A stretch of DNA of 12,736 nt from a virus (taxonomy: Duplodnaviria > Heunggongvirae > Uroviricota > Caudoviricetes), in IMG/VR virus record IMGVR_UViG_2675903606_000010; one strand, given 5' to 3'. Of this stretch, positions 1-3,000 are shown in pieces. How positions within the stretch are numbered: the stretch's first letter is position 1; every line of letters starts with the position of its first letter. Position numbers: made by a program.

Positions 1-3000
1 CCACGCCTTCAGTAGCGGAGCAGGAAGGACATCTGATGGAAATGGAAGCCACGCAAGCACCTTAAAATCACCATCATACACTAAATCAGTAAGTTGGCAG
101 CATTACCGAATAATGCGCAGAACCAGTACAGGACGATCGCCAGTGATAATGCTGAGGCGTAATTTAAACGGACGTTCTTTCAGACCTTCAAACGGAACGC
201 ATTTAAATTCAAATGCCACTGGCATAATGTCTTTGGTCTTCGCTTCGACAGACTCCATCAGGGAGCGTTTGCCGCTGAAGTCATTGTCTTCAAAATCAGC
301 GGTCTGGTTCGCTTCAATTGTGATTTTACGGATCGCCGCAGCCGCTTTGGTTGCCTGAATGGCGTCACCATTAGCATCAAAGCCCACAAGGTAGTCGGCC
401 CAGTCTTCAATCCATTCTGCCAGTGACTTCTGGGAGTTACGCTCGCCATTAACAGACAACAGAGCAGAGAACGGTGCTGTCTTTTTCAGTTTGAGAGTGG
501 CGGTGTTATCTGCGTGACCTGGTTCATCAATAGTACCCAGGTTAAGCACACTGACGGCTCGCATATTATCGGCATCGATAAAGCAGCGGGTGCCTTCATC
601 TGCAAGATCTTTAGAATAACGGGTAAAGTCATCGATGCTGGCAGTGGAAAGTGCACCACGGAAACGGAAACGATTTAAATTAAATTTTTCCAGATCATGA
701 ATGCGGAAATTCTCAGGCAATGCCACAGCATCGGCACCAATCTTACTGATAATTTCATTAACACCCTGAGCAGAAATAAGGGCATGGATTTGATTAATTG
801 CGGTTGAGTCTAAGTTCTGAGACATAATAAGTCCTCACTATATTAAGATATTCAGTGATGAGATAAATAATCAGTTAATTAAGAACGATATTAATGACCT
901 GCTGCGCGGAGTTTTCCGTCAGGTTCACCGGCAAGAGTCAGTAATTGTCTCTGGTCTTCCTGCAGAATAGTCAGGCGACCACCGCGATTGACATACATCG
1001 GCGTTTCGGTGGTGTCTTCTTCGGAAATTTTCCCGCGGTTAGTCGGGCGAACATATGAGAGTTTGTGTTTGATTTTCACACGGTTCTCATCAAATGGTTC
1101 GATTTCCAGGTTGAGTGAGACCTTCCCTTTGGTTTTCGTGTTCATCACACCGGAAGCGACTTCACTGAGAACTGCGCCGATTTTGGTTTCAAATACGCCG
1201 CCGTCCAGCTCCCCGATAAATGTCTGCACATCAGTACTGCGTTCGCTAGCCATTTTGCTGCTCCTCATCATATCGACCCTGCAAGGTCGGTTGGTTTCTC
1301 CACAAAACAGAGAAGAACACCTGCGGTGGCAGCCGCCCGGATGGATTGGGTTATGAGCCCGTCGTCCGGTGATGCTCTTCTCTGTTTTGTAAAAAGAGCG
1401 GTACCAGCCGGAAGCAAGTGTACAAACTGGTACCGCCAAAGCAGTGGCTGTTGTGGTGGGGTTGTCACTCAGGTGTATGGTCAACCTGACAATCCGGTGT
1501 CCTCAACGGGGAAGGAATAACCCCGCCATACTTACCGCCGCGCCATTTCGCGGATTACCACAACGCTGAGAGCACTTAGCCAGTTACGGCACCACACTTT
1601 GTCGCGGTTCCATAAATGCCCTCATCGTTGCACCCTGGTCTCTTCCCAGGCGTCAAACCGAATCGCCACGCTGGTTAGGCGTCTTATCAGCATCCTCATT
1701 GACTTGCACATTCCGGCTACCTGGTTTGTCTGCTCGAGCAAGGAGTGGATTGTCCCCTTTAACGTCCCCAGACCGCTAACGACGCATGTGCCATACGCCG
1801 TGTTACAACCAAATTTTGTTTAATCTTGCCTGTGACATGTTTCTTTTAGATACATTATGTATCTCAAGGGTACATTGTCAAGTATAAAAAAACCTGCCGA
1901 AGCAGGTTATAAATATTGATTAGGCCTTTATTTTGTATCTTCTTGGTTTTCCTGAGAAAATTACTGTACCAATTATAGAGCAATTACCGTTAATCTTAAT
2001 GTAAGGCTCAGGCCAGTTTGGGTTTAATGCTTTGAGATAACGCTGTGTTCCATCTTCTATCAACCGCTTGAAGGTGGTTTCGCCTGAATCGTGCATCAAT
2101 GCAATAACGTCGTCACCGTGGCAGGCAGGGACTTCAGGATCTACAAAAATCATGTCTCCCGGGCGGTACTCATCAATCATTGAATCACCAATCACCCGCA
2201 AGATATAAGTCATTTCGCCACAGGGTACAGGGCAGGGATAAGTTTCTGCTGTGCTCAAATCAACCTCAGAATAGCCAACTTCTTTCCATGCTCCGGCCTG
2301 TACCCATGATATGACAGGGACTAACGTTATTTGTTTGTTAGTAATTGAAACATCAGGTTTTTTTGTGATGTTTGTTGTCTGGTGTTCTTGATCAAGCCAT
2401 CCGACAGGCAGGTCGAAACATTTTTCGATGTGCCGTGCCATGCTGTCACCGATATTTTTAGTAGCACCATCTCCCATAAACCTGCTGGTCTGGGTTGGCT
2501 CGCGATCAATCATGGTGGCAAAGGAAGAATTCCCGCCAACACCATCTCTCAGTTTTCTGGCGTTAGACCGCCGGATGTCATGGACTGTTTTCATAACGAA
2601 ATTAAAACCTTTGTACCGATAGGGTACAAGTATCTTGAAGGTTCATCTCAATCATGTAATATGTATATTGGAGGTACATATTGTATGAAAGCGTATTGGG
2701 ACTCTTTAACCAAAGAACAGCAGGGCGAGTTGGCCGGAAAAGTTGGCTCAACACCAGGCTACTTACGGCTGGTTTTCAATGGTTATAAAAAAGCCAGTTT
2801 TGTGCTGGCTAAAAAACTTGAGCAATGCACGTCAGGTGCAATTACGAAATCTGACTTAAGACCGGATATCTATCCGAAAGATTAACAGAACACCTTCAAT
2901 TTTTAACCACAGAACGATGAGGCTAACCGTGGGTAAGCATCACTGGAAAGTAGAAAAACAGCCTGAGTGGTACGTGAAAGCTGTCAGAAAAACTATCGCG

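Follow-up and report, generated by a model that had tools for sequence, protein, structure and literature searches.

The early-left leader of a lambdoid prophage without N carries a probable DicF-type small RNA and two uncatalogued RNA structures

The window analysed here, a 12,736-nucleotide (nt) stretch of the Caudoviricetes record IMGVR_UViG_2675903606_000010 (IMG/VR), comprises the immunity and early region of a lambdoid prophage without N. Our subject is the leader (1254-1847) that lies between the repressor gene and the first early-left gene of this prophage. The repressor is encoded by an S24-peptidase cI-type gene (1920-2594, minus strand), and the window also contains a cro-like gene (2685-2885), a CII/CP76-like gene (2917-3480) and a gene for a Q-type antiterminator (9008-9802). 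On the minus strand the leader is followed by a YfdP-like gene of 120 codons (891-1253), the first of the early-left genes, and next by a DUF2303/YfdQ gene (103-825). ARAGORN found no tRNA gene in the window.

The original prediction placed an early-left promoter (PL) over an operator palindrome, and this arrangement is present. On the minus strand, TTGACA (1881-1876) and CATAAT (1859-1854) are separated by a 16-nt spacer, giving a promoter (1881-1854) with 11 of 12 consensus matches, which is annotated identically in phage Ayreon and from which transcription is predicted to start near 1847. A 17-bp palindrome read from the sequence, AGATACATAATGTATCT (1848-1864), overlaps the -10 hexamer, with a wider imperfect inverted repeat (1837-1875) around it; GTAC-containing palindromes resembling this operator also occur on the cro side. 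The intrinsic terminator of the cI transcript (1908-1891, minus strand) is likewise an annotated terminator in Ayreon.

From this promoter to the first gene, the leader (1254-1847) is untranslated over about 595 nt, and its minus strand (594 nt) folds more stably than shuffled sequence (z = -4.5). The 666-bp stretch that contains it (1254-1919) shares 97-99% identity with phage cdtI, Ayreon, 2H10 and a series of Stx2c-converting phages, whose annotations over the stretch show either nothing or short hypothetical open reading frames (ORFs), and a near-identical leader is found in 903 of 5426 complete E. coli genomes. A 29-residue arginine-rich ORF, MCKSMRMLIRRLTSVAIRFDAWEETRVQR (1711-1622, minus strand), had been described as the longest on this strand. 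That description needs correction, as a 66-residue ORF beginning with GTG (1268-1468) and a TTG extension of the first gene can also be read, and none of these mechanically called leader ORFs is conserved as a reading frame. The arginine-rich ORF is not a gene: across 26 homologues, the frame opened by its invariant ATG emerges from a variable hairpin in all three frames, and often stops after 6-20 codons. Furthermore, no arginine-rich or N-like ORF preceded by a Shine-Dalgarno (SD) sequence was found in ten PL-type leaders of comparable prophages. The leader can thus be taken as noncoding, structured and N-less, as first proposed, and no conserved N-like frame was found, the ORFs with GTG and TTG starts included. 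Searched as three sub-ranges, 1254-1919 also contains no Rfam family, either at the gathering threshold or at E ≤ 10.

Relatives were sought stretch by stretch with sensitive BLAST against phage genomes. Positions 1254-1458 were found in SfV, SfII and ST64B, 1442-1564 in many E. coli prophages, and 1558-1801 in epsilon15-like phages (phiV10, SPN9TCW, Tyrion and BUCT711), in P1, P7 and D6, and in mEp390. Since different stretches have different relatives, the modules were analysed one by one. Parts of the leader, chiefly 1564-1450, are matched in 4742 of the 5426 complete E. coli genomes (approximately 87%). Where the original prediction saw a single leader with two hairpins, these relatives show a mosaic of five independent modules, RNA domains that are conserved and mobile separately from one another. 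One of them, 1626-1807, had not been singled out before.

This module, which we call the core, is a 182-nt RNA (1807-1626, minus strand) defined by a covariance model and an alignment (A4) of 26 sequences, all below 95% identity. The alignment supports four nested helices and two pseudoknots, with 95% of cells paired and compensatory change on both sides of the helix in 12 of the 33 pairs. None of 500 shuffles of the alignment reached any of the five measures used, and slid partners paired at 27-41%. In order along the minus strand, the nested elements are H1 (1801-1796 / 1784-1779), H2 (1776-1768 / 1724-1716), a variable hairpin (about 1702-1683), H4 (1682-1678 / 1672-1668) and H6 (1650-1646 / 1638-1634), the last with the loop GAAGAGA. 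Pseudoknot PK1 would join 1791-1786 to 1711-1706 (GCACAU with AUGUGC), and PK2 would join the loop of H4 (1676-1673) to a downstream GGUG (1659-1656). PK2 has changed from CACC/GGUG to AACC/GGUU in the lineage of the window and Citrobacter, and the same switch has occurred separately in one of two otherwise near-identical Kosakonia sequences; we therefore propose it as a covariation-supported pseudoknot of the core. Judged as a structured RNA family in the generic sense, the core shows compensatory changes and no conserved frame.

The covariance model built from the 26 core sequences (R1) scores 150.6 bits and identifies exactly one copy per locus. HK022, Qin, SfV and ST64B give no match, and the window, its PR operon included, contains this one copy only. 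An invariant 22-mer of the core is found in more than 120 IMG/VR contigs, and a two-motif pattern finds 23 loci in species-representative genomes, nearly all of them from Enterobacterales. The core matches no family in Rfam 15, even at E ≤ 10, and has no earlier description in Rfam or in the searchable literature, a search outside which most papers in subscription journals fall. The same literature yielded no relevant work on N-less Stx2c phages, SfV, mEp phages or HK639 put. Two further assignments of the core were considered and set aside. By inspection, its helix order does not fit a hepatitis delta virus (HDV)-like, twister or hammerhead topology, and a GAUGAG string in it is not accompanied by a hammerhead core. 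A CsrA sponge acting through GGA loops is also unlikely, each core having just two GGA, within much longer invariant stretches.

The core occurs in three recurrent settings, of which the first is the PL leader. Here it lies on the same strand as, and directly downstream of, a cI-type repressor gene in the window, in mEp390 and in Stenotrophomonas phage BUCT708. It also lies directly after S24 and helix-turn-helix (HTH) repressor genes in Phytobacter, Kosakonia, Pseudescherichia and Citrobacter prophages, and directly after an HTH-only repressor-like gene in a prophage of E. whittamii. In many loci the core starts 22-50 nt past the -10 hexamer of a strong promoter, and in some it starts at about the transcription start. 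The BUCT708 leader (locus 2390-2960) in addition contains four hairpins of the form UGAC-N-stem-G(G)AAAGA-stem, one of which is the terminal hairpin of the core, and a very strong terminator 125 nt after the core, ahead of the early genes.

In the second setting, the epsilon15-like phages, the core belongs to a divergent unit between the terminase and portal genes, and is preceded by a strong TTGACA-17-TACCTT promoter overlapping a palindrome. This palindrome, ATTACCTTTTAGGTAAT, spans the -10 hexamer and the start site in four loci, and a palindrome so placed suggests that the divergent unit is under repressor control. The core here often lies between hairpins of the X type described below, and is followed by tRNA-Arg (65-122 nt on), a strong terminator and a small ORF. 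The third setting is the C1-controlled ban transcript of P1, P7 and D6. In P1 and D6 the core begins 9 nt beyond the 3' end of a CAU-anticodon tRNA (annotated as tRNA-Ile in P1), and after the core comes AUUUUCUGGUGA, as at the RNase E-generated 5' end of DicF. The P1 core (71010-71194) is unannotated. Between the P1 core and ban (locus 2400-2500) there is also AUUUUCUGGUGAUGAC, similar to UUUCUGGUGAC, the 5' end and RNase E site of DicF, and further upstream the same P1 operon has a dicF-like region with an annotation of its own.

A different conserved RNA of about 65 nt stands directly after PL in SfV, SfII, SfIV, ST64B, mEp237 and mEp460_4F5, and in phages of Yersinia, Pantoea, Pectobacterium and Aeromonas (SfV locus 1696-1775; ST64B locus 1935-2015). 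It occupies the position of the core, and its GGAUGA loop resembles the loop of HK022 putL and putR. Among the leaders compared, a sample biased by the way in which loci were collected, 58 contain the core only, 50 the SfV-type RNA only, and 4 contain both.

Adjoining the core is a hairpin of 70 nt, the X hairpin (1630-1561, minus strand; -30.6 kcal/mol, z = -5.0), with the closing stem CAACGAUGAGGGCA / UGCUCUCAGCGUUG. It has a counterpart in Qin, and similar hairpins flank the core in epsilon15-like phages. Module 2 follows (1564-1450, minus strand), which the 8-bp helix GUUGUGGU / ACCACAAC closes into a domain. With the Qin DNA just upstream of dicF it shares about 95% identity, and it is homologous to the body of the 190-nt Qin DicF precursor, and the changes that Qin shows in the closing helix are compensated. 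Compared by eye, module 2 (1450-1564) loosely resembles the 5' half of the core (1716-1801), with GGCGGGGUU..UUCCUU..CCCCG and with ACACCGGAUUGUCAGG against UAGCCGGAAUGUGCAAG. It could be a distant paralogue of that half.

The cassette continues with a DicF-like, putative terminator hairpin, UUUGGCGG (1440-1391, minus strand), which consists of a 10-bp stem, a 19-nt C/U-rich loop and a terminal UCUUUUU. The perfect GC-rich stem and U-tract had been noted in the original prediction, and the stem (1398-1407 / 1427-1436; -21.2 kcal/mol, z = -4.3) and the 18-bp stem of module 1 are the top inverted repeats of the region. Because its loop is 19 nt long and so falls outside the consensus terminator scan, the hairpin 1436-1391 is not listed by that scan; the GC-rich stem of 10-13 bp and the UCUUUUU are accompanied by a position that is conserved across the family. 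This family of GGCGG...CCGCC-U5 hairpins extends across phages, with covarying stems and variable pyrimidine-rich loops, and stands before module 1.

DicF is a regulator of cell division. The terminator hairpin of the window aligns with its 3' part, sharing UUUGGCGGUAYCAGUUU, and takes the same place in the operon: after a conserved domain, as a GGCGG...CCGCC-U5 hairpin, and before a long stem and the next gene. Relative to Qin, the DicF 5' seed UUUCUGGUGAC is deleted in the window. The missing seed and the different loop explain why the DicF model (RF00039), which gives the Qin copy 76.7 bits, has no match in the window at E ≤ 10. Two DicF species have been described (Ragunathan et al.): RNase E generates the 5' end of a 53-nt form, and RNase III that of a 190-nt form. 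When 190 nt are measured back from the Qin DicF terminator, the end left by RNase III falls at the 3' base of the X hairpin. The X hairpin of the window is thus, through homology, a probable RNase III site, and 1564-1391 is the counterpart of the long (190-nt) DicF species. In the Qin locus itself (about 3910-4007 and 4001-4130), the RNase III-made end, as mapped by this count, lies at the base of a conserved hairpin, and the DicF body is a closed, conserved domain. We conclude that the cassette 1630-1302 is a new variant of the DicF locus.

The 18-bp stem noted in the original prediction (1302-1319 / 1373-1390, enclosing 53 nt) forms module 1 (1390-1302, minus strand; -47.5 kcal/mol, z = -7.1), and it covaries. 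In alignment A6, 93% of cells are paired, with seven compensatory pairs and slid controls at no more than 50%, and covariation is seen in both the long and the inner stem. Inside the module lie the inner stem, a small variable hairpin and the sequence CGGGCUCAUAACCC, which looks like the anticodon arm of initiator tRNA. This 14-mer, with three G-C pairs, is also part of an E. coli tRNA-Met gene present at four copies per genome, which we take to be that of initiator tRNA-fMet. Module 1 almost always stands after a terminator U tract and before UGUGGAGAAAC and a yfdP-like gene, and the yfdP-yfdQ pair is also found downstream of it in SfV and ST64B. In the window, the interval from the module to the first gene (1301-1254, minus strand) holds the linker UGUGGAGAAAC, which is conserved in the relatives that we term class A, a hairpin (1291-1272) and the SD sequence GAGGAG before the start codon at 1253.

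Class B relatives of module 1 lie within phage tRNA clusters downstream of Q, and have a 6-bp acceptor-like stem and RCCA. In Klebsiella phage RCIP0034 (locus 1503-1575) and similar IMG/VR loci, a tRNA-sized RNA immediately follows tRNA-Asn and tRNA-Arg; it has the stem GGCCUG/CAGGCC, RCCA and a CUCAUAA loop, and is a relative of the interior of the 18-bp element. The class B relative beside tRNA-Asn/tRNA-Arg is not called by ARAGORN or by the Rfam tRNA model (RF00005), even at E ≤ 10. Qin has a different long stem at the same place before dicB, with a weak match to STnc100 (RF02076; 34.1 bits, below the gathering score). The STnc100 model has no match in the window, and SfV and ST64B have a Qin-like STnc100-type copy upstream of their DicF-like hairpin. 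Given this shared position, the 18-bp stem is probably a second RNase III substrate.

All the physical features named in the original prediction are borne out, and the region holds more than it described. Taken as a whole, the finding is of a known kind, an untranslated, processed phage early leader with a DicF-type small RNA (sRNA), to which two uncatalogued, well-supported RNA structures are added. Of the three readings suggested in the original prediction, two have fared well. A prophage-encoded regulatory RNA gains support from homology, the terminator hairpin and the preceding 115 nt being the counterpart of the 190-nt DicF of Qin. RNase III processing gains it also, as 1630-1561 matches the mapped Qin site and the 18-bp stem takes the position of the long Qin stem before dicB. 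The proposed covariance-model search and comparative alignment had a divided outcome, with no Rfam family recovered and compensatory changes found in the alignments of the core and the 18-bp stem.

We are now able to propose a mechanism, which on balance we consider probable: 1254-1847 is the untranslated start of the cI-repressed PL transcript, working as a polycistronic RNA precursor of five mobile domains. The absence of coding, the folds with their covariation, the homologies and the genomic settings are observed; where the RNA is cut, that polymerases read through and what the core does are inferred in this scheme. Upon loss of the repressor, RNA polymerase would start near 1847 and make the 182-nt core first. 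RNase III would then cut the X hairpin (1630-1561), as it does in the Qin homologue, and so split the core from a DicF-like RNA of about 175 nt. This RNA would consist of module 2 and the hairpin, would end at the intrinsic terminator at 1391, and may undergo further trimming by RNase E. Some polymerases would pass the leaky terminator, whereupon the 18-bp stem would form, and RNase III acting there would probably detach the yfdP-yfdQ mRNA from the RNA part. These read-through transcripts would be the source of early-left gene expression. The core would be a separate RNA that targets a conserved machine of the host, and the foremost specific candidate is modification of the transcribing polymerase, which would then ignore the downstream terminator.

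Processing signals on both sides of the core suggest that it is released from the precursor. Along with them, its company of tRNAs and sRNAs, its mid-operon site in P1 and the four dual leaders are pointers to a released RNA that acts in trans. In Qin, dicB lies behind the DicF terminator and no core is present. Derepression of Qin is reported to cause DicB-dependent filamentation. The expression of dicB in Qin means that a gene behind a DicF-type terminator can be expressed without a core.

Several points weigh against this proposal. Firstly, the RNase III cuts in the X hairpin and the 18-bp stem of the window are placed by position only, and both the 5' and the 3' ends of the transcript in this phage are predicted from sequence. 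Secondly, the hairpin 1436-1391, a predicted terminator, combines its 19-nt loop with just five U. Thirdly, the core by itself folds no more stably than shuffled sequence does (z = 0.2); ordinary folding stability is common for RNAs that rely on tertiary contacts. PK1 is invariant in the alignment, and covariation was sought in 114 metagenome copies selected without constraining it. It shows no compensatory change, one wobble-compatible change and one incompatible change (the latter in two loci), and it remains a proposal. Finally, action of the core in trans is the weak part of the mechanism.

The strongest alternative, which overlaps the mechanism above and which we hold only tentatively, is that the core is a cis-acting processive antiterminator, an analogue of HK022 put that replaces N. 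HK022 put works in cis by way of the beta' zinc-binding domain of RNA polymerase, and suppresses terminators with no protein factors. The nascent core would bind its own polymerase and carry it past the DicF-like and later terminators. Its place favours this: the core is transcribed first from PL in at least nine repressor-adjacent, N-less contexts, often 22-50 nt from the promoter, with strong intrinsic terminators 125-600 nt downstream. As ORFs begin within about 10-40 nt after these terminators, there is little room for a separate promoter. BUCT708 presents the expected order of PL, core, very strong terminator and early genes, and SfV and mEp460_4F5, with the same immunity region and downstream modules, have the 65-nt GGAUGA-loop RNA in place of the core, the two RNAs being mostly alternatives (58 and 50 leaders, with both in 4). 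By eye, H1 of the core also shares ACGGCG...CAUGCGUCG..AGCG with stem I of putL.

Against antitermination in cis, the P1 core lies 2.3 kb from Pban and directly before ban, with no obvious terminator after it; four leaders contain the core and the SfV-type RNA together; Qin expresses dicB behind its DicF terminator without a core; and the flanking processing signals point to release of the core. Searched at E ≤ 1, the HK022 immunity region, with its putL and putR, gives no match to the R1 model, and the PR operon contains no further copy of the core. As family membership, the HK022 put reading of the original prediction therefore fails: there is no covariance match, and the core is a single-copy RNA of 182 nt with at least five helices. 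The boxA-like and boxC-like strings of the leader are strands of helices, the former being the 3' strand of the X hairpin, after the GAAGAGA hairpin, and the latter the 5' strand of the closing helix of module 2, and a nut- or rrn-like boxA-boxB-boxC reading was rejected on this ground.

A broader form of these ideas would give both uncatalogued structures a function, and we hold it as tentatively as antitermination in cis. The core would be an undescribed class of RNA that reprograms host RNA polymerase, a processive antiterminator with no structural relation to put. It would act from early promoters under repressor control, and N-less lambdoid prophages (Stx2c and Cdt-I phages among them), P1 (before ban) and epsilon15-like phages would use it. 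The 18-bp element would mimic the anticodon arm of initiator tRNA and have a separate role, such as serving as a decoy against toxins that cleave tRNA-fMet or controlling translation initiation.

The remaining alternatives are much less probable. It seems very unlikely that the core cleaves itself as a ribozyme, or guides an RNase, solely to mature neighbouring tRNAs and sRNAs. HDV-like ribozymes reportedly occur beside phage tRNAs, and the core has a double-pseudoknot-type fold with many invariant junction nucleotides, and stands 9 nt after a tRNA 3' end (P1-like) or 65-122 nt before tRNA-Arg (epsilon15-like). Many PL-type loci are without a nearby tRNA, however, the helix order is unlike that of HDV or twister, and no Rfam ribozyme model matches. 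More improbable again is a riboswitch-like sensor of a metabolite or tRNA that sets read-through into the early genes. The 5'-leader site, the pseudoknots and the highly conserved unpaired nucleotides would suit such a sensor. No expression platform overlaps the aptamer-like part, however, the hairpin that comes next is independent and exchangeable, 190-600 nt separate the core from the terminator, and the downstream genes are unrelated between contexts (ban, tRNA, yfdP). Least credible of all, and largely refuted, is a small N-like arginine-rich protein made from the leader (from the 29-residue or a non-ATG ORF) with the GAAGAGA hairpin as its boxB, since, despite the invariant ATG of MCKSMRMLIRRLTSVAIRFDAWEETRVQR and a GAAGA loop that resembles the lambda nutL boxB loop, the frame differs past the variable hairpin, many versions soon stop, variation in the core tracks base-pairing and not codons, and the ten leaders examined contain no SD-preceded arginine-rich ORF.

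On the other side of the immunity region, isrK (3837-3913, plus strand, 60.1 bits) and the C4 antisense RNA (3938-4025, plus strand, 80.1 bits) are matched at gathering level in Rfam. Both matches lie inside a mechanically called ORF (3477-4313), the C-terminal part of which matches Pfam Phage_ASH. This part of the PR operon, which comes after the CII(CP76)-like gene, resembles an RNA immunity module of the P1 immI / P4 type. No complementarity of the C4-like RNA to the leader was seen by eye.

The implications of these observations extend beyond a single prophage. DicF, until now a single sRNA, becomes one of a family of terminator-hairpin sRNAs whose loops are exchangeable, and the conserved sequence upstream of dicF is identified as a distinct folded domain with an RNase III hairpin at its edge. 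The core, strongly conserved from Escherichia to Stenotrophomonas phages, present in the model phage P1 and not in Rfam, represents a new transcription device based on RNA or else a new effector RNA of phages. To our knowledge, passage of early terminators in N-less lambdoid phages is established for HK022 only, and the leader, as found in Stx2c- and Cdt-I-converting phages, offers a testable second case.

Among known systems, the Qin dicBF operon invites comparison with the cassette. Both are repressor-controlled operons of the early-left type, and both follow the order of X hairpin, closed domain of about 115 nt, GGCGG...CCGCC-U5 hairpin, long stem and first downstream gene. They differ in that the window hairpin is without the DicF seed UUUCUGGUGAC and has another loop, in that the long stem is module 1 in the window and STnc100-like in Qin, and in that Qin has the protein genes ydfABC upstream, where the window has the core. 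The leader of the P1 ban operon, with its annotated dicF-like region, tRNA-Asn, tRNA-Thr and tRNA-Ile, similarly joins a DicF-like region and a core on a repressor-controlled early transcript, in another order and spacing and without module 1. Module 1 in turn contains CGGGCUCAUAACCC, identical to the E. coli anticodon stem-loop of tRNA-fMet, although it has neither a D nor a T arm, and an 18-bp helix without CCA replaces the acceptor stem.

The remaining comparisons concern terminator passage. With lambda N/nut and the rrn signals the leader shares a GAAGA hairpin loop and boxA-like UGCUCUCAG and boxC-like GUUGUGG strings, but there is no N gene and the order of elements is not that of nut. 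The core is unlike HK022 put in its length (182 nt against about 70 nt), in its architecture (at least five helices and proposed pseudoknots against two stem-loops), in being single, with none after PR, and in occurring also outside early-promoter leaders (P1, between trnI and ban). It is like HK022 put in the short resemblance between its first hairpin and that of putL and, more generally, in its setting: an N-less lambdoid phage in which a conserved folded RNA stands right after PL, with terminators ahead.

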